64,000 nt of DNA from a virus (Duplodnaviria; Heunggongvirae; Uroviricota; Caudoviricetes): the IMG/VR virus record IMGVR_UViG_2541047873_000001; one strand, written 5' to 3'. The notes beneath the pieces are model-generated. The model made no database searches. It was not told the DNA's origin and saw only the letters and a list, made by a program, of their open reading frames with translations. Below are positions 2,639 to 32,779 of this stretch, in pieces. Position numbers and translations under genes: made by a program. The first letter of the stretch is position 1; each line of letters starts with the position of its first letter.

Positions 2639-3214
2639 ATGTTAACGGCGAACGATAACGCGTATTTAGAAGATGATCTCGTTTTGAGTGACTTTATAGG
2701 GCGACGAGAATGCTGGACGCAAAAGCGCGAGGAGCTTTATGCAGCGTTAGTTCGTAAAGGCGTCAACATCGAAACCGCACAGAACGGTGATATGACAGTG
2801 GTAAGTGTTGGACTGCACGGCGTAAGTGTGTCAGCAATCAATCATGAGCCGTACATTGCGTTATCCGAGTCGATGGTAAGGTTAGTTAAGTTCCTGAAGT
2901 ACACAGAAGCGAATAACGTGCTCATCGCCAAAAAGAACATCCCGTTCTCATCGGCCTTTTACTGGATGATGAAGGGGCTTGATGCCCGGCGAACATCATG
3001 GCCTAAAGGGAGCTATATATCGATGCTCCGTGGCAGTGTTGGTAGCAAAGAAAAGCTCGTCGAATTCCTGCCGGAAGAGGCATTCGATATTGTTGAAGGT
3101 TGTGATGTGATGGTTATGCCTCGCCTGGTAATGATGAATGGGGATTTACAGGCGCAGACAGACTGGTTTGCAACTGGAGTTGATATTATCGCTACTGACT
3201 GGGAGGTTTTTTGA
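2639..3214 (+). CDS. hypothetical protein with DUF2829-like C-terminal domain
   Basis: 191 aa ORF; C-terminal half has W..G...RR.SWPKG and terminal TDWFATGVDIIATDWEV signature resembling DUF2829 (Tad2-type) domains. Confidence 0.5.
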   Translation: MLTANDNAYLEDDLVLSDFIGRRECWTQKREELYAALVRKGVNIETAQNGDMTVVSVGLHGVSVSAINHEPYIALSESMVRLVKFLKYTEANNVLIAKKNIPFSSAFYWMMKGLDARRTSWPKGSYISMLRGSVGSKEKLVEFLPEEAFDIVEGCDVMVMPRLVMMNGDLQAQTDWFATGVDIIATDWEVF

Positions 3215-3594
3215 TGTACGAGGCTACTAAATTACGCACTGAGGATGCGATGCACATTGGTTGGGACATCATCACCTGCAAGATAACATCATGCAAGGCT
3301 ACACGCACAGACGCCGGACACAAGAGCACAATATCAGGTTATGTCGTGATGTCAGTCAGGAGTGTGCGCATACGCTTCAGATGGAAAGCCAGCCAGGTTA
3401 CATCATCAATGCCGCTTACCGTCGAGCAGGATTATTTATGCTTACCCGAAATAGACGGAGCGTTGCTGGTGGGCAATAGTGGTCGAAAAGCCGATTTTGA
3501 AGCCAGTCTGAAGATGGCGCAGGCGGTGATCAACAAACATAAAGGGAAGTGGGAGGCAAAAGTTAAGCATGTTGTTCGTTTATCCCGCTGGTAG
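3211..3594 (+). CDS. hypothetical protein
   Basis: 127 aa ORF whose ATG overlaps the upstream stop (TGATG coupling); no recognisable domain. Confidence 0.35.
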   Translation: MMYEATKLRTEDAMHIGWDIITCKITSCKATRTDAGHKSTISGYVVMSVRSVRIRFRWKASQVTSSMPLTVEQDYLCLPEIDGALLVGNSGRKADFEASLKMAQAVINKHKGKWEAKVKHVVRLSRW

Positions 3595-5455: not shown

Positions 5456-6963
5456 TGGCTGGTGGTCGTAAGATTAAGTGCGTCACCAGTGATCCACGTT
5501 GGCGCGATATGGTTATCAGGTATCGATACAACTTTACCCAGGCGGTTGTCGATATTTTTGGGATGTTACCCTCCCACCAGCAGCAGCAGATCATTCAGTC
5601 AGTGCAGGAGACGGGGAGCAGGACGACCGTTACGTCCGGACACGGAACGGGTAAGTCGTCCCTTACCGCGATGTTGCTACTAATTTTCATGATCCTGTTC
5701 CCCGACGCCCGCGTCATTATTGTTGCGAACAAAATAGGCCAGGTAAAAACAGGCGTATTCAAATACGTGAAACAGTTTTGGGCGAATGCTGTTAAGCGTC
5801 ACGGCTGGTTACAGACCTATTTTGTCCTGTCTGACACCATGTTTTATGAGCGTTCCCGTAAAGGGATATGGGAAGTGCTCTGTAAAGGTTATCGACTCGG
5901 TAACGAAGAGGCACTGGCGGGGGAGCACGCTGAGCATTTACTGCTAATCCTTGATGAAGCATCGGGCATATCCGATAAGGCGATTAACGTCATGACGGGG
6001 GCGTTAACGCAGAAAGATAACCGTATGCTCATGCTTTCCCAGCCTACGCGTCCAAGCGGTTACTTTTATGAATCTCACCATTCAAGGGCAAAGGCAGAAG
6101 GCAATCCGGAAGGTGTCTGGACGGCAATAGTCCTTAACTCTGAAGAATCACCATTCGTTGAACCGAGCTTTATTCGTGAGAAATTGCTGGAGTACGGCGG
6201 CAGGGATTCGCTGGAGTACATGGTTAAGGTGCTGGGCCAGTTCCCGCGTGCAATTAACGGGTATTTGCTTGGTCGTGATGAGTGCGACCGCGCCGCACGG
6301 CGTAAAGTGTTGCTGGAGAAAGATTGGGGCTGGGTAGCGACCGCTGACGTCGGTAATGGTCGCGACAAATCGGTGCTCAATATATGCAAAGTATCCGGTT
6401 ATCGTGAGAAACGACGCGTTGTGAACTTTAAGATACTGGAGATGCCAGGCACTATGGACCCGTTGGCTTTTGCCGACTTTATCTATAACGAATGCACTCC
6501 TGATAAATACCCGAACATCACCATTGCTGTGGATGCTGATGGCTTTGGTTCAGATACGTGTGCGCAGCTTGTCCGCCGTGGTGCTAATCCCGTTCGCATC
6601 CGTTGGGGTAAGCCTATGTTTGCGCTAAGAGACAGAGAACGCTTTGTCAATCAGCGTGCTTACGCCAATATTATGGCAGGGGATGCCATTAAATCAGGGC
6701 GTATGCGTATCGATAGTGACCCCAAAACCGCAGATCAGGCATCAAAAATCCCGTATATGCTTAACGAAGAAGGGAAGGTAGCGATGATGCGCAAGGAGCA
6801 CATGCGGCAGAAGTTAAACATCAAGTCGCCGGACAGATGGGATACCTACTGCTTCACTATGCTGGTGGATTACGTGCCTGCTAATGAAGACATTGGCGCA
6901 GAACTCGCAACATTCCGCGATCAGGTGTTGGCAGAAGTGGATATTCCTGATATTGACATTTAA
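5455..6963 (+). CDS. pacB: terminase large subunit PacB-like
   Basis: 502 aa; Walker A-like GHGTGKS and downstream LLILDEASG (Walker B-like) ATPase motifs; follows pacA with 1-nt overlap. Confidence 0.75.
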   Translation: MAGGRKIKCVTSDPRWRDMVIRYRYNFTQAVVDIFGMLPSHQQQQIIQSVQETGSRTTVTSGHGTGKSSLTAMLLLIFMILFPDARVIIVANKIGQVKTGVFKYVKQFWANAVKRHGWLQTYFVLSDTMFYERSRKGIWEVLCKGYRLGNEEALAGEHAEHLLLILDEASGISDKAINVMTGALTQKDNRMLMLSQPTRPSGYFYESHHSRAKAEGNPEGVWTAIVLNSEESPFVEPSFIREKLLEYGGRDSLEYMVKVLGQFPRAINGYLLGRDECDRAARRKVLLEKDWGWVATADVGNGRDKSVLNICKVSGYREKRRVVNFKILEMPGTMDPLAFADFIYNECTPDKYPNITIAVDADGFGSDTCAQLVRRGANPVRIRWGKPMFALRDRERFVNQRAYANIMAGDAIKSGRMRIDSDPKTADQASKIPYMLNEEGKVAMMRKEHMRQKLNIKSPDRWDTYCFTMLVDYVPANEDIGAELATFRDQVLAEVDIPDIDI

Positions 6964-27333: not shown

Positions 27334-27809
27334 AGCTCACCAGCACGCTGTTTTTCAAGCGTAGATTTAACATTGGGCGCTTTCCCTTTAAAAGAATGGA
27401 AAGTGCCACATTTTTCTGTTTTAACCTCGCGCAGAGCTTCGCCATCGGCGTTCTGCCATTGATGAGATAACGTCATATCACCGCGAGAAGGAACATCCAG
27501 CGAGTACAACGTGTAAGTTCCCCCCATCTCGGCATACTCCTGGAACACATAGCTCATTACGTCAGATTCAGTTTTCCGGTGCGCGTTATCAACCTTATTC
27601 CCATTCAGAAATATGGCGTTCGGATAGATTTTTATATCAAACCTACCGCACTTTACCTGCAAATTCCCAGCATTAGCAATCAAAGGAAAAAACATTAATG
27701 CCGCTATAGCCAGCTTATTCAAGTTTGATGTCTTTGTTGAAGAAAATGGTTTCTCTTTTTTTATGCGTATCATTTCATTAACTCCAGACATTGTTGTCTT
27801 TTCATCCAA
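27330..27809 (-). CDS. secreted or lipoprotein-like hypothetical protein
   Basis: N-terminal signal peptide (KLAIAALMFFPLIANA). Confidence 0.5.
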   Translation of the reverse strand: MDEKTTMSGVNEMIRIKKEKPFSSTKTSNLNKLAIAALMFFPLIANAGNLQVKCGRFDIKIYPNAIFLNGNKVDNAHRKTESDVMSYVFQEYAEMGGTYTLYSLDVPSRGDMTLSHQWQNADGEALREVKTEKCGTFHSFKGKAPNVKSTLEKQRAGEL

Positions 27810-27816
27810 TTTGAGG

Positions 27817-28446
27817 TTAATTAGTACAATTCATTTTTGCAGCGACTTCGGCTACCCCACGATCAATGTAAGGCTGCTCACTTAATATCTTTTGGATCTC
27901 ACTACGAATGCATTCCGCTGTAGGTTGCTTAGGTGCTTGTTTTTGCTTCGCGGATCGTTCAAGTTCCATCATGTTATTGAATCCTGCCACATCACTTTGC
28001 CGAAGCATCCCTTTCCGGATAAGAAACTGCTGCCCTTCAGGCACCCAAGCCAGCATATACAAAGGCTGCAATAGATCTCCCATTCCTTGCTGACGATAAA
28101 GCTCAAACTGCAACACGCCGTTACTTAACACCGACATTGTGTCTTTGGTGGAATACCCTGTCTTTTGTATGGCTTTGCCTGTTTCATCTGCTGCATATGC
28201 AAATACACAGAACTCAATGTTGCTTTTAAAGAATGGCTCTACAGGTTTCAGCGGGATATTTTCTTTCTGGCAATAGTTTGAAACTTCATCAGGCGTATAG
28301 TTTGTTTTGGCGTTTCGCAACACCTTCAGCCCAGCCTCATACTTTGCAGGTAACGCGCCTGCATAGGCAGCATTAAGAGAAACTCCCCCCAATATAACCG
28401 CGAGCACTGCTCCCAAAACCCTTAACTTCACAAAACCATCCTTCAT
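27817..28446 (-). CDS. secreted hypothetical protein
   Basis: 209 aa from MKDGFVKLRVLGAVLAVILGGVSLNAAYA (signal peptide); track ORF extends further upstream. Confidence 0.5.
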   Translation of the reverse strand: MKDGFVKLRVLGAVLAVILGGVSLNAAYAGALPAKYEAGLKVLRNAKTNYTPDEVSNYCQKENIPLKPVEPFFKSNIEFCVFAYAADETGKAIQKTGYSTKDTMSVLSNGVLQFELYRQQGMGDLLQPLYMLAWVPEGQQFLIRKGMLRQSDVAGFNNMMELERSAKQKQAPKQPTAECIRSEIQKILSEQPYIDRGVAEVAAKMNCTN

Positions 28447-28711
28447 GTAAACAAACTGAAGTTTTATGTTACAAAAACAAACATCTACGCCAAAATGACT
28501 TAGGCCAAATTCAGCGCGAATAAAAAAATCAAAAAAATTGTTGACACTATTCTGGAAATCACAATCTGGACAAAATCCATTGCGCAAACGGCTCCCGTTG
28601 AAGGTTCTTTTGACGACTAACTTTCAGCCGATGCGCGGTAGGGAGTCATAACGCCAAAGCAGGCCGCCATGTGCGGCCTTTTTTTGTGCCTGCTATCGTG
28701 GAGTAAAAGCC

Positions 28712-29365
28712 ATGCAAAAGATCGCAATATTCAGTCTTTCTACTAACAAGCCGCTGATGGCTACGGCAGTCCTGAAAGACGGCGCGCTTGTAATTGACAA
28801 AGTAAAGCCGCTCCCTGCATCTGCTATTGAACAAAAACGAAAAATTCCACCAGCAATTGCCGAGCTGCGTAAAAGTGAATTTAAGGTGCTGGTTGACGAA
28901 ATCACGCCAACCATTTCAGCCGGTACAGGTGCCAGCCAGGTAACATTAAAAACACGGCACGCCGACGGCAGAGCAGCGATCATTGTCGGCATGGAGAGAT
29001 ACCGGGAGCTGAAACTACAAAGGCTGCTATCCCTGCCTGACAAGAACAAAGGGGCATTTGAGATCCCCGACTCTATCGTCGATACCGAATACAACGGCAA
29101 CGGTGAAGAGGTTTATCGAGTTAACTGGCAAGATATCCGACCAGAGCACATCCTGATGATTCTGTGCTGCTATGCAACGGTATACCACAATGTTGCCAGC
29201 GCGGATTACCTGAAACAAATGACAGGAGCGGTAGAGAAAGAAAACAAAGCAGGGATAATGGCCTCGTTCCTGTCCATTATCAGCGATCAAAAAGCTAAAG
29301 CAGGAAATACCCAACCAAAATCGCTGGCCGGGCAAGTAATTGATGAAGATACGGTGATACTTTAA
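28712..29365 (+). CDS. hypothetical protein
   Basis: 217 aa; preceded by TTGACA and TGGAAATCACAA motif. Confidence 0.5.
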   Translation: MQKIAIFSLSTNKPLMATAVLKDGALVIDKVKPLPASAIEQKRKIPPAIAELRKSEFKVLVDEITPTISAGTGASQVTLKTRHADGRAAIIVGMERYRELKLQRLLSLPDKNKGAFEIPDSIVDTEYNGNGEEVYRVNWQDIRPEHILMILCCYATVYHNVASADYLKQMTGAVEKENKAGIMASFLSIISDQKAKAGNTQPKSLAGQVIDEDTVIL

Positions 29366-29696
29366 TCAACTCAGTAGCTTTGTTAACTCCCTTAATACCA
29401 GGTAGAAGAGTAACAAAAATACTAACGCCAGTATTTGCGTGGTCAACGAGGCGTTCATAAACAGAACAATTAGCTTTAACAATTCGAGAATAACGTCCAT
29501 GTCATTCACACTATTTAATTTTTAATCTACAGCCAGCAAACAATGAAGCTGGCCCCCGCATAAAGATTAATGAAAGTCACTTGTCACCAGTGAGGGGATT
29601 TATGAACCACATCCCCCTGAACTGGTGGACTGTCTATTTCTCGCATTTCACACCCTGCATACAGTTCCCCCCAGGTTATGACTGTGAGGAACTGTT

Positions 29697-30026
29697 ATGA
29701 GTTACAGCAGGCTCGACGATCGATGCATTGAAGACGATGTGCTGCGCGCACTATTCCATCAGGAGATGATCAAGCGGGTATCGGAGTACCACTCCGATAA
29801 TTTCCAGTACACGATAAAAATTGATGAGGTTTATCGCTCAGACCTGGCGGCCTATCGCGCCTATGGCAACGCTGATTTGCGCTGGGTATTTCGCGTGCTG
29901 GTGGGCCATGAGTCAGAAATGGAAGAAATGCCGGTAGGGACAACGTTAACTCTTCCTGACGCAGCATGGCTAAGAAACAAGATTCGCGATTACGCTGGCT
30001 CGGCACCGGAGATAGAAAATGCCTGA
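29697..30026 (+). CDS. hypothetical protein
   Basis: 109 aa; stop overlaps next gene start. Confidence 0.45.
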   Translation: MSYSRLDDRCIEDDVLRALFHQEMIKRVSEYHSDNFQYTIKIDEVYRSDLAAYRAYGNADLRWVFRVLVGHESEMEEMPVGTTLTLPDAAWLRNKIRDYAGSAPEIENA

Positions 30027-31215
30027 CTTCCTGAAAAATCAGGACGGGCGATATATCACTGACGGCCTGTCCTCTAAGGATTTCACACGCGTATTTGAAC
30101 TCATCAGGAAAGAGCAAAACCGCAAACGCCGCCAGGCGCACAGGACACTCACGCCGGGCAGGCTTAGGAATAAATCAGCCGAAGACATTCTTAAGCTGGG
30201 GAAAAAGAAAGGCGGCACGTTCTTTACGCGTGACGATCTGAAAGGCTTCGAAAAGCTGCGAAGCAAAGCACGCGAAAAATACGACAGCAAGACGGCTGGC
30301 ATTACATACGCACAACTGGTAGCGTCCAGCCAGGCTATCGATATTAAGCGAGCAAATAACGCCGTAGACGACGGTTCTGGTATCAAAAGAGCTACGCCCG
30401 TATCTCTTCGTCACAATGTGATTAATATCCGCGTGGAAGCGTCCGATATATCCGTTCACCAGCACCACATTGTCCGGGTACGTTTTGAAGAATGGGATCA
30501 GATGGTCGATGACATCGCAGAAGACGATAAATCAGCCCTGAAAGTCACAAAATCACTGTGTGCCGGGCGAGTGTCTTTCGATTGTGACTGCGGTCGCCAT
30601 CAATACTGGTATCGCTACATCGCCACTGCGGGTAACTTTGCCCTGGCCCCGCCAAAAGAATACGCCTATCCAAAAGTTCGCAACCCTAAGCTGCAAGGCG
30701 TCGCCTGTAAACATGTGATCCACTCAATGACACGACTACAGTCTGCCAGTTGGCAGATGAGTATTGCTCGCGCCCTGCAAAAAGCTGCAACGCAAGTTGC
30801 CTTTGGTGACGATCGCCGCCGCACGACAAAACACTTCACAAAAGAAGACGAGAAGGCGTTCAATCGAAACCGTAGCAGCAAAACGAATGTTGAGGCAGCT
30901 AAACGTGAATGGAAGCTCTATCAGAAACGCCAGGCCGCTTTAAGCACAAAACTGGCAAAGGACAACGGCAAGATTGACAAGCTACGTGACCAGCTGACCA
31001 GGGCCAGAAAGTTGTCCGATGCACAGAAAAAACGGGCAGCAGCAAAAGAAGCAGCCTTGCAACGTGAGAAACAGAAAAACAAGGAGCTTCAGCAACGCCT
31101 TGCCGATCAATTCGCACTGAAGAAGCAAGCGTTCATTGATGCGCTGGTCATGACAGGAACGTCACCTGAGCAAGCTGAAAAAATGTTTATGGAGTATGTG
31201 AAGAAAGGTTCTTAA
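30019..31215 (+). CDS. SWIM-type zinc-finger protein with basic coiled-coil C-terminus
   Basis: 398 aa; CDCGRH...CKH (CxC..CxH) SWIM-like motif; Lys/Arg/Gln-rich coiled-coil C-terminal third. Confidence 0.5.
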   Translation: MPDFLKNQDGRYITDGLSSKDFTRVFELIRKEQNRKRRQAHRTLTPGRLRNKSAEDILKLGKKKGGTFFTRDDLKGFEKLRSKAREKYDSKTAGITYAQLVASSQAIDIKRANNAVDDGSGIKRATPVSLRHNVINIRVEASDISVHQHHIVRVRFEEWDQMVDDIAEDDKSALKVTKSLCAGRVSFDCDCGRHQYWYRYIATAGNFALAPPKEYAYPKVRNPKLQGVACKHVIHSMTRLQSASWQMSIARALQKAATQVAFGDDRRRTTKHFTKEDEKAFNRNRSSKTNVEAAKREWKLYQKRQAALSTKLAKDNGKIDKLRDQLTRARKLSDAQKKRAAAKEAALQREKQKNKELQQRLADQFALKKQAFIDALVMTGTSPEQAEKMFMEYVKKGS

Positions 31216-31223
31216 TTTACAAC

Positions 31224-31248
31224 AAAGGCGGTTATCCCGCCTTTTATA
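31224..31248. terminator. bidirectional hairpin terminator
   Basis: aaaggcgg-ttatc-ccgccttt flanked by T runs on both strands, between convergent genes. Confidence 0.6.
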
Positions 31249-31986
31249 TTACTTGTCCTTTGATGTCGATTGAGACTCATATATTGTCTCTACGTCATCT
31301 ATTAGTTTATTAATACCCCACAATCCAGTGTCTTTATAAAAATCGCTTTCTTCAATTGCTTTTAATAAATCGGCAAAATCTTCTTGGGTGGAAATTCTTT
31401 TCTTTTTTGCTTTATATACATCGACAATTACTTTTATGCCGTGATACAGAGCCAATCTGGCACTCTCAGTCTCTCTCTTCTTCTCTTCAATTGCAGACAA
31501 TAATTTATATTGATCTTCTGTTTGCTTTTCTAGACTTAAAAGCTTGCTCTCTTTTTGCTTCAAGTTGATCTGCAACTCTTTTATTCTTGCCCTCTCTTCT
31601 AAATCAAACTCATAGTCAATGTATCTAATTCTTGCATAGTTCCTGCCTGTTGCTTTTGATATATACATTGTTATATAAGGCATTACCACTGACGCAGTGG
31701 TTCCATATATAAATGGCATAACAAAATGAGCCACAAACGGAGATACAATGATGGGGCCAACATAAGGAAAGTGATATTTCTCACCAACCCATACTATAGA
31801 CAATGTTGTATATATATCGTACTTTGATTTAAATAATATAATAATATCCTGCCAGTTAACGACAAAGAAAGAAACCACAACATATGCAAACAACTTATTG
31901 AATAACTTGTCTCTTATGGCTTCTTCTATTGTGTTCCTGACTGTGACATTTTCATCTTTATTTTCTAATGATGAATCTTTGCTCAT
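31249..31986 (-). CDS. AT-rich membrane-anchored coiled-coil protein
   Basis: About 245 aa; roughly 33 percent GC versus about 50 percent flanks; hydrophobic helices in residues 30-110 then long coiled coil; immediately downstream of higA on the same strand. Confidence 0.6.
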   Translation of the reverse strand: MSKDSSLENKDENVTVRNTIEEAIRDKLFNKLFAYVVVSFFVVNWQDIIILFKSKYDIYTTLSIVWVGEKYHFPYVGPIIVSPFVAHFVMPFIYGTTASVVMPYITMYISKATGRNYARIRYIDYEFDLEERARIKELQINLKQKESKLLSLEKQTEDQYKLLSAIEEKKRETESARLALYHGIKVIVDVYKAKKKRISTQEDFADLLKAIEESDFYKDTGLWGINKLIDDVETIYESQSTSKDK

Positions 31987-32047
31987 ATAAAAATTCAAAC
32001 CTTCTTATCTTTATTTTTGGTGAAGGCGGTCTTCCAGACCGCCAAAC

Positions 32048-32407
32048 TCAAACACCAACCAGGCTTTCAAGAGGAATGCCAAACTGGGAATGTAAACGAC
32101 GAATCATAGGTAACGTCAAATTTCGCGTGCCATTAAGCACTTCGTAAACACGGTTTGACTTACCAATTGCCGGTTCCAGATCCTTCACTGTCAGCCCTTG
32201 CTGTTCCATACGAAACTTAATGGCTTCAATAGGTGATGGTGGCTCAATTGGGTAATGCTTTTTCTCGTACTCTTCGATGAGCAGGCACATTACTTCAAAG
32301 AAATCGCCTTCCGGTGTGTTCATTTCCGGTTCGTTATCGAACATCGGTTCGACCGCACGCAGTGCGGCCTCATAATCTTGTTCTGTACGGATAGGTTTAA
32401 TGTTCAT
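32048..32407 (-). CDS. higA: HigA-type antitoxin (HTH)
   Basis: 119 aa; C-terminal HTH GKSNRVYEVLNGTRNLTLPMIRRLHSQFGI resembles HigA. Confidence 0.75.
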   Translation of the reverse strand: MNIKPIRTEQDYEAALRAVEPMFDNEPEMNTPEGDFFEVMCLLIEEYEKKHYPIEPPSPIEAIKFRMEQQGLTVKDLEPAIGKSNRVYEVLNGTRNLTLPMIRRLHSQFGIPLESLVGV

Positions 32408-32410
32408 GAT

Positions 32411-32713
32411 TTACTCCAGTTCTATTGTATCCGCTTCAATGGCATCATATTCCTTATGTGTTCCAATAAACTTAACGAACATCCATCCTCGCTGATAAGC
32501 AATTGCGACAATTAACCTGTAATCATTTCCCTTAATATTAAACACCACGCGCCTGTTTTTAAGGATGCTGGCTGTCCGGTACTGTTCTTTGATCTCAGCC
32601 GGATTTTTCCAGTCAGCCTTTGTTGCTTCATCAACCCATGCCTTTAATGGCTGTTCTGCATCGGGATTCTTCGCCCAGAAATCCCTTAGTGTTTTTACCG
32701 AAATTATTTTCAT
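32411..32713 (-). CDS. higB: HigB-type toxin (RelE/ParE superfamily)
   Basis: About 100 aa from MKIISVK; FNIKGNDYRLIVAIAY...FIGTHKEYD matches the HigB pattern; toxin gene precedes antitoxin. Confidence 0.8.
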   Translation of the reverse strand: MKIISVKTLRDFWAKNPDAEQPLKAWVDEATKADWKNPAEIKEQYRTASILKNRRVVFNIKGNDYRLIVAIAYQRGWMFVKFIGTHKEYDAIEADTIELE

Positions 32714-32732
32714 CACAGATTCCTTCTCTCTG

Positions 32733-32779
32733 AAAGTATAGTAGTCCCAATATGGGACAATGTAAAGCACTTTAGTCCC
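32733..32779. promoter_or_regulatory. tandem palindromic operator candidates in higBA promoter
   Basis: agtcccaatatgggac and agtcccatgctgggat: two imperfect palindromes 31 bp apart just upstream of higB. Confidence 0.5.

Follow-up and report, generated by a model that had tools for sequence, protein, structure and literature searches.

How does a protein with a zinc-finger-like motif and a long basic coiled coil come to be encoded beside phage morphogenesis genes, and what could it do there? The question is raised by positions 28712 to 31215 of a stretch of viral DNA of 64,000 nucleotides (nt) (Caudoviricetes; IMG/VR record IMGVR_UViG_2541047873_000001), the whole of which we call the window. 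A first-pass annotation had described there a three-gene operon ending in a gene for a SWIM-type zinc-finger protein of 398 amino acids (aa), and had found no function evident for any of its members. The three open reading frames (ORFs) lie just as it had described them. They are listed here under the names that are argued for below:

28712-29365, plus strand: mat homologue, 217 aa
29697-30026, plus strand: gene 26 homologue, 109 aa, isoelectric point (pI) 4.86
30019-31215, plus strand: gene 25 homologue, 398 aa, 45.6 kDa, pI 10.07

Compared nucleotide by nucleotide, the region shares 85.6% identity with Escherichia phage D6, a P1-related plasmid prophage. In D6 the three counterparts are annotated, in order, as 'maturation control protein, similar to P1 mat', 'baseplate wedge subunit, similar to P1 gene 26' and 'tail protein, similar to P1 gene 25'. 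At the protein level, Mat is 85% identical to D6 orf78 and 32.7% identical to P1 Mat across 94% of the protein (tblastn, E 1e-30), and the gene 25 product, gp25, is 96% identical to D6 orf74 and 56.7% identical to P1 gp25 across 84% of the query (tblastn, E 1e-112). In addition, PHROG profiles are matched by Mat (phrog_1837, E 4.5e-90), by gp26 (phrog_1269, E 1e-35) and by gp25 (phrog_1722, E 1e-195, residues 2-396). Since these matches, together with that of a minus-strand ORF in the gap between mat and gene 26, range from E 2.6e-23 to 1e-195, the four ORFs are genes and not chance reading frames. Because the D6 and P1 annotations, the tblastn matches and the PHROG matches all agree, it is practically certain that what lies in this interval is a set of late morphogenesis genes, mat, 26 and 25, belonging to a D6-like, P1-family plasmid prophage.

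Functions can thus be named for a locus in which none had been evident: each gene has its orthologue in P1 (mat, 26 and 25), and gp26 is a solved baseplate protein. The homologues are established virion assembly proteins, a finding that the first-pass annotation had itself named as counting against its proposal. Of the profile hidden Markov model searches that it had proposed, those against PHROG identified all three genes, and those of the native proteins against Pfam and NCBIfam gave no meaningful match, nor did a PADLOC scan; the only PADLOC match of the three proteins, to DpdA (E 0.0095), was treated as noise, as it contained no significant stretch. The P1 literature treats all three as essential, citing amber mutants in the case of genes 26 and 25 and, for mat, a reference on essentiality (PMC10695390). 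The locus is ordinary in that it belongs to a common D6/P1-like phage-plasmid and its genes are already annotated by homology in the D6 genome, and what is new here is limited to a better annotation of gp25, the history of the operon and a leader RNA.

The product of gene 26 is the easiest to place. Its residues 3-100 match the solved chains 9ay5_S and 9vzk 'Gp26' (phmmer, E 2.4e-18), and cryo-electron microscopy (cryo-EM) of P1 places gp26 as a six-fold plug attaching the wedges to the hub (PMC12810830; 10.1101/2025.07.21.665459). By this homology the gene 26 product is assigned as a small acidic baseplate plug, T4 gp53-like, that glues the wedges to the hub. The protein of the window is 109 aa long, 16 residues shorter than the 125-residue P1 chain, and nothing else notable distinguishes it from the P1 gp26 and T4 gp53 plugs.

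P1 gp25 is among the last morphogenesis gene products of its cluster without a molecular role. Its family comprises 295 members by word-indexed search and 636 representatives at 50% clustering, and the exact sequence of the window is present on 126 public contigs, where it is named only 'phage tail protein' or 'hypothetical protein'. The protein shares with P1 gp25 and D6 orf74 full-length homology, a place right after gene 26, an invariant Cys/His motif and a C-terminal coiled coil; nothing essential differs from P1 gp25, except that in the window and in D6 gene 25 precedes an inserted cassette and not gene 7. Single-sequence and profile searches of the PDB with gp25 returned only noise. Two parts of the protein are of interest here:

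30583-30714, plus strand: SWIM-type Cys2-Cys-His module of gp25, C189-D-C191 ... C230-K-H232, with a conserved 38-residue insert
30889-31152, plus strand: C-terminal basic coiled coil of gp25, residues 291-378, with 24 K/R against 11 D/E and long AlphaFold2 (AF2) helices at residues 291-313 and 317-378

The CxC...CxH motif noted at first pass is indeed present. We observed no variation at C189, C191, C230, K231 or H232, whether among 35 close homologues of gp25 or among 41 distant ones at 22-40% identity; over these 76 homologues the mean column identity is only 20%. The four ligands are embedded in a strongly conserved block (SFDCxCGRHQYWYRY...FPKIRNP.L.G..CKHV.). A fold search with gp25 gave matches to ZSWIM8 and to phage SWIM-type proteins; the BFVD matches include phage proteins named 'SWIM-type domain-containing', with E values of 1e-5 and 2e-4. 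This module is not mentioned in the public annotation of the protein, and we found no paper on a SWIM domain in a phage morphogenesis protein with a coiled coil.

Neither native gp25 nor its core domain matches the Pfam SWIM model (PF04434), even at E<=10. That model has only 38 positions in total, with a gathering threshold of 19.6 bits, and it is because of the 38-residue insert that gp25 escapes it. Indeed, when the insert was deleted in silico the protein reached 17.6 bits (E 0.0028), which is under the threshold, and one of the 41 distant family members matches the model in its natural form (E 0.0024). In comparison with known SWIM zinc fingers, such as those of ZSWIM8, MuDR transposases and bacterial SNF2-associated SWIM proteins, gp25 has the same CxC...CxH signature, a second half of the typical form G-x-x-CKH-[VI] and beta strands ahead of the CxC. 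It differs from them in that the ligand pairs are split by the conserved insert, so that the Pfam model does not recognise it, and in that the protein which holds the domain serves phage morphogenesis and joins it to a coiled coil. By motif and by predicted fold the module is best described as SWIM-type, without being a Pfam-defined member, and it is predicted to bind zinc.

Could the CxC...CxH arrangement be due to chance, or be a structural feature that holds no metal, so that there would be no SWIM-type zinc site at all? The lack of a Pfam match on the native protein is what such an explanation would predict, and the 38-residue spacing appears longer than that of the 38-position model. It would leave unexplained that four residues are invariant down to 22% identity in a family whose mean column identity is only 20%, that two of the BFVD matches are named SWIM-type and that a natural family member does match the Pfam model. 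We consider it highly improbable.

The basic coiled coil that had been proposed after the motif was also borne out. Residues 263-398 contain 36 K/R against 19 D/E, and residues 291-378 follow a single dominant heptad frame, in which 17 of the 26 a/d positions are hydrophobic, compared with 7-11 in the other frames. The AF2 model of full-length gp25 (predicted local distance difference test score, pLDDT, 81.5) has a core of three strands and helices, followed by the C-terminal helices; modelled alone, the core (residues 90-262) reached a pLDDT of 87 and a predicted template modelling score of 0.84.

As to the function of gp25, the P1 GenBank record labels gene 25 'tail stability', and the other two genes so labelled have been structurally placed in P1, gp7 as the stopper and gp24 as the tail terminator, unlike gp25. 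Genes 26 and 25 are adjacent in 87 of the 87 loci that hold both, in P1, and in Acinetobacter phage ABMM1 (35% identity). The two products are of opposite charge (pI 4.86 for gp26 versus 10.07 for gp25), and the genes overlap by 8 nt (ATGCCTGA); since the ATG of gene 25 overlaps the stop codon of gene 26, translational coupling of the two is suggested. In a study that by its own account identified almost all P1 proteins from head to tail, gp25 was left unmodelled (PMC12810830), and it is not among the proteins modelled in a preprint on the P1 tail and baseplate (10.1101/2025.07.21.665459). Mass spectrometry of P1 virions detected it by 2 peptides, with 8.4% coverage, and the authors proposed that it is possibly an assembly cofactor (PMC9024508).

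The most likely reading, to which we give an even chance, is that gp25 is mainly a non-virion or sub-stoichiometric factor in tail and baseplate assembly. More tentatively, the likeliest job for it would be to assist in the correct formation of the acidic plug and of the lock between wedges and hub. In such a mechanism the SWIM-type zinc module would pin the alpha/beta core of gp25, with the heptad coiled coil coming after it, and the protein would act while the tail and baseplate assemble, aiding the formation of plug and lock. Tails made without gp25 would be metastable and would contract prematurely, which would fit the 'tail stability' label. The SWIM-type module, the heptad coiled coil and the linkage to the plug gene give concrete point mutants and interaction partners for gp25.

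Several points weigh against this reading, and we hold it, for the locus and for gp25 as a whole, with confidence that is evenly divided. The 'tail stability' of gene 25 rests on the notes of the P1 GenBank record, and defective or unstable tails upon loss of the gene would follow from P1 amber mutants as summarised in that record, in PMC9024508 and in PMC10695390. Two gp25 peptides were found in caesium chloride (CsCl)-purified P1 virions, so that a low-copy structural role is possible (PMC9024508), and knock-down of P1 genes 25 and 26 by CRISPR interference reduced plating only about 10-fold (PMC10695390). Zinc binding by gp25 is a prediction, the Pfam SWIM model does not recognise the protein, and the promoter function that we assign below to a recurrent motif is drawn only from its position and recurrence. 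Finally, the gp26 partnership is not universal, because in a Xanthomonas phage the gene ahead of the homologue is tape-measure-like, and a gp26-like ORF is absent upstream:

5800-6879 of PQ569993.1, Xanthomonas phage Rb1: gp25-family homologue annotated 'transcriptional regulator MvaT'

The tape-measure-like gene just ahead of this homologue encodes 948 aa and has a transglycosylase-like C-terminus. The gene orders of ABMM1 and Rb1 led us to consider gp25 as a head scaffold, a candidate that was rejected when PHROG scans returned tail-fibre-like, gp26-like or unknown neighbours.

The position of the Rb1 homologue directly after a tape-measure-like gene also bears on another explanation, in which gp25 is a genuine low-copy or flexible component of the virion, located in the tail lumen with the tape measure or at the baseplate's periphery, where cryo-EM, through its symmetry averaging, would miss it. 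Long coiled coils are characteristic of proteins that lie in the lumen or associate with the tape measure. The two peptides from purified virions are in line with such a location (PMC9024508), and P1 cryo-EM likewise resolved neither the tape measure protein Sit nor UpfB nor the fibres (PMC12810830). Yet gp25 appears in neither P1 model, in spite of the claim to almost all proteins from head to tail, and its mass-spectrometric signal is weak and was flagged by the authors as possibly that of a cofactor. The same run missed gp26, which is expected at six copies per virion, so that detection is non-quantitative either way. We regard a low-copy virion component as possible, on the unlikely side.

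The annotation of the Rb1 protein raises a further alternative, namely that gp25 is a nucleic-acid-binding regulator whose SWIM domain and basic helices act on DNA or RNA, for example on the mat leader described below or on late mRNAs, the tail phenotype being indirect. SWIM domains occur in DNA-binding proteins, gp25 has a pI of 10.07 with basic N- and C-terminal regions, and a conserved structured leader with a terminator lies ahead of the operon. However, P1 has gene 25 and no such leader was found there; the gene is always inside structural gene clusters; the label in the P1 record is tail-specific and not of a general late-gene kind; and the 'MvaT' label has no support in Pfam scans of 41 gp25 family members, for which reason we rejected it. 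A regulatory gp25 is in our view improbable.

Are the three genes a unit of their own? In P1, the late promoter LP26 and the C1 operator O26 stand ahead of a single cluster, 26-25-7-24-6-5, and mat is found beside ref at 2716-3468 of the P1 record, far from 26-25 at 76851-78455. In most diverged relatives (Mat 30-56% identical), neighbouring ORFs in the series mat, 26, 25, 7, 24 and 6 either overlap or are separated by no more than 0-24 nt, as seen in two loci (L006 and L007) and in dozens of viral contigs. This gene order shows that an ancestral tail/baseplate operon, mat-26-25-7-24-6-5, began with mat, 26 and 25, and that it has been split in the present lineage by accessory cassettes at the mat|26 and 25|7 junctions. 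P1, with its distant mat, is the exception among the relatives.

The Mat family is confined to P1/D6-like elements. We obtained no match of Mat to defence families, Pfam, NCBIfam or the PDB, where single-sequence and profile searches gave only noise. That mat is the first gene of the ancestral tail operon is, judging from these gene orders, a new observation, and because of this first place a tail- or baseplate-related role of Mat is pointed to; the comparative data thus place mat in the ancestral tail/baseplate operon. A late-promoter-like element precedes both the P1 mat and that of the window. The two differ in that P1 mat adjoins ref, more than 5 kb from 26-25, whereas the mat of the window and of most relatives directly precedes gene 26, and in that the mat of the window has a structured leader with a terminator, which was not found in the P1 stretches that were searched, nor in P1-type phage records at blastn sensitivity.

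Upstream of mat and of gene 26 we observed the following elements:

28541-28546, plus strand: TTGACA hexamer, conserved in D6
28553-28576, plus strand: promoter-type motif TGGAAATCACAA-N6-CAAAAT, upstream of mat
28574-28689, plus strand: structured leader RNA with a three-way junction, 116 nt, ending in an intrinsic terminator
29646-29665, plus strand: second motif copy TTTCACAC-CCTGCA-TACAGT, 31 nt upstream of gene 26

Both TTGACA and TGGAAATCACAA (28553-28564), which the first-pass annotation had placed ahead of the first ORF, are present. The hexamer was rejected as a sigma-70 -35 element: there is no -10 element at 16-18 nt, a promoter scan found no sigma-70-type site, and TTGACA is absent from the five other motif sites. 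TGGAAATCACAA occurs exactly only twice in the window, and it proved to be one instance of a recurring promoter-type element. In the looser form WWTCACAN-N6/7-NANANT, this element has six sites in the window, all on the plus strand and 30-160 nt before plus-strand gene starts, beginning at 28557 (mat), 29646 (gene 26), 32799 (gene 7), 41496, 42658 and 61652, as compared with 1.5 +/- 1.2 sites expected in first-order Markov simulations. D6 keeps the motif upstream of mat, with a better -10 (CATAAT). The element resembles the -22 boxes of P1 late promoters (AAGTGACTT, AAATGACTA), from which it differs by lying 2 nt further from the -10. It is probably a lineage-specific promoter, and a late one.

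About 60 nt upstream of the TGGAAATCACAA motif there is a second P1-type late-promoter-like site, AAATGACTT-aggc-CAAATT (28493-28511, plus strand), the box of which is less conserved in D6 (ACATGATTT).

The leader was not mentioned in the first-pass annotation. Its terminator, detected by a terminator scan as a stem at 28661-28679 followed by T7, lies between the upstream motif and the start codon of mat, and between the window and D6 the leader is more conserved than the coding regions. With a pattern scan and a covariance model, the leader was recovered immediately ahead of mat in D6-like phage-plasmids of at least nine diverged types of sequence, and the seed alignment lacks several of these types. 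The common fold comprises a long outer stem, a hairpin with the invariant loop UUUUGACRAYUWAC (UUUUGACGACUAAC in the window), a short second hairpin and the terminator. When a structure based on a single member was used, with an alignment that had in part been fitted to the model, 83% of cells were paired, versus 74.7 +/- 1.0 in shuffles, and 14 pairs show double changes, versus 8.2 +/- 1.7, neither value being reached in any of 500 shuffles; the covariation score is 0.276, versus 0.03-0.11 in slid controls.

An Rfam scan of 27500-32500 at E<=1 gave no match, and a c4-type antisense RNA was set aside on that ground. In a search of the window for an antisense target of the loop, only the loop itself was recovered. 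The leader was not found in P1-type phage records at blastn sensitivity. The covariance model found no further copies, either elsewhere in the window or among the P1 loci, and the leader is therefore no general feature of late operons. In relatives the operon begins 15-20 nt past the leader terminator, so that transcription of the tail operon must pass through it. The leader could act like a promoter-proximal terminator or attenuator, or could instead be a small RNA gene.

This arrangement recalls that of lambda PR'-6S RNA-tR', with a promoter-like motif, a structured RNA of about 100 nt, an intrinsic terminator and, after it, a long operon of late structural genes that leaves no space for a further promoter; it differs in that the mat leader has no sequence or Rfam relationship. 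Late control in the P1 family is ascribed to a single activator, Lpa, and we know of no antiterminator in the P1/D6 phage family. The leader and its terminator are a candidate for a new cis-regulatory RNA in this family, which serves as a model, and if its gating is real an extra antitermination or attenuation step in P1-family late gene control would be implied. A wider proposal would join the two subjects: gp25 would represent a new class of zinc-dependent, SWIM-type coiled-coil non-virion factors that install the gp53-like plug and set the baseplate stability of contractile tails, and the D6-like mat-26-25-7-24-6-5 operon would be gated by a leader with a promoter-proximal terminator. Taken as a whole, we find it doubtful.

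The second motif copy may function as a promoter of gene 26. Having this copy ahead of it, gene 26 appears to have its own promoter, and consequently the three genes are no clean stand-alone operon. The last ~65 nt before gene 26 are common to D6-clade loci that carry different inserts, and the corresponding position in two relatives (L009 and L123) is occupied by AAATCACA-N7-GAYAAT. Read-through from mat into gene 26 would be possible, because no plus-strand terminator is predicted from 28690 to 31224. The two phage-specific motif copies would drive expression from two places, one before the terminator-containing leader of mat and the other directly before gene 26.

The same lack of a terminator would suit a simpler scheme, in which mat, 26 and 25 are co-transcribed from the upstream motif as one operon and the gap between mat and gene 26 is only a spacer; that the three ORFs overlap in relatives also fits. 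This scheme has to accommodate a strong terminator between the motif and mat, a gap that contains a convergent ORF with its own late-promoter-like box, a second promoter motif copy 31 nt before gene 26, and the P1 mat lying more than 5 kb from gene 26, beside ref. We think it possible, with a probability well short of even. From the three-gene operon of the first-pass annotation we retain that the genes belong together, as they overlap in relatives. A self-contained unit driven by TTGACA is not supported, given the lack of a -10 at sigma-70 spacing, the terminator before mat, the convergent ORF in the gap, the second motif and the longer ancestral unit mat-26-25-7-24-6-5.

Two observations concern the DNA around the second motif copy. 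At 29661-29695 (plus strand) there is a 14-nt inverted repeat, 86% complementary and weaker in D6, in which the ribosome-binding site of gene 26 (GAGGA) pairs with an upstream C-rich arm; most of the 5' arm would be missing from transcripts that start at the proposed internal promoter, and present in those that read through from mat. In L009 (5480-5570) and L123 (4590-4679), the motif AAATCACA-N7-GAYAAT is followed by a short GC-rich hairpin and a T-run over the expected transcript start, an arrangement that would halt upstream read-through and re-initiate.

The segments inserted into the ancestral operon have a GC content of 0.33-0.43, versus 0.48-0.51 in the core genes. In the D6 clade the mat|26 inserts measure 63, ~332, 919 (HicA/HicB) or 1003-1668 nt, and the 25|7 inserts up to 2909 nt. 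The following features belong to the two junctions of the window:

29366-29509, minus strand: small hydrophobic ORF, phrog_38362 (E 2.6e-23), the equivalent of D6 orf77
29564-29582, minus strand: P1-type late-promoter-like site AAGTGACTT-tcat-TAATCT, directed towards the small ORF
31224-31244, plus strand in the terminator scan: terminator hairpin between gene 25 and a convergent 249-aa ORF
31249-32770, minus strand: low-GC cassette in 25|7, GC 0.33-0.43

The gap that had been noted between mat and gene 26 spans 331 nt (29366-29696, GC 0.417), and short inverted repeats found in it agree with the hairpins reported there at first pass. The hydrophobic minus-strand ORF is a real gene, of 44 aa when started from the ATG, as in the D6 annotation, or of 47 aa from the GTG at 29509. 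It is limited to D6-clade loci with the ~332-nt gap, other loci having HicAB, other inserts or no gap. The 9-nt box of the site that points at it is identical to the P1 LPmat box, with an equal 4-nt spacing, and is fully conserved in D6; the site is a putative late promoter. The small ORF is convergent to mat and abuts it, so that read-through from mat would be antisense to it.

In the 25|7 cassette, no family match was obtained for the 249-aa ORF (31249-31998). The ORF at 32411-32770 matches PD-Lambda-2_A (E 1.9e-41), and that at 32048-32407 matches just positions 1-119 of the 402-position PD-Lambda-2_B profile (E 6.7e-43). The cassette may be variant anti-phage defence or toxin-antitoxin cargo. 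Both junctions, mat|26 and 25|7, are hot spots for the insertion of accessory cargo, in the form of HicAB, a PD-Lambda-2-like defence cassette and small membrane peptides.

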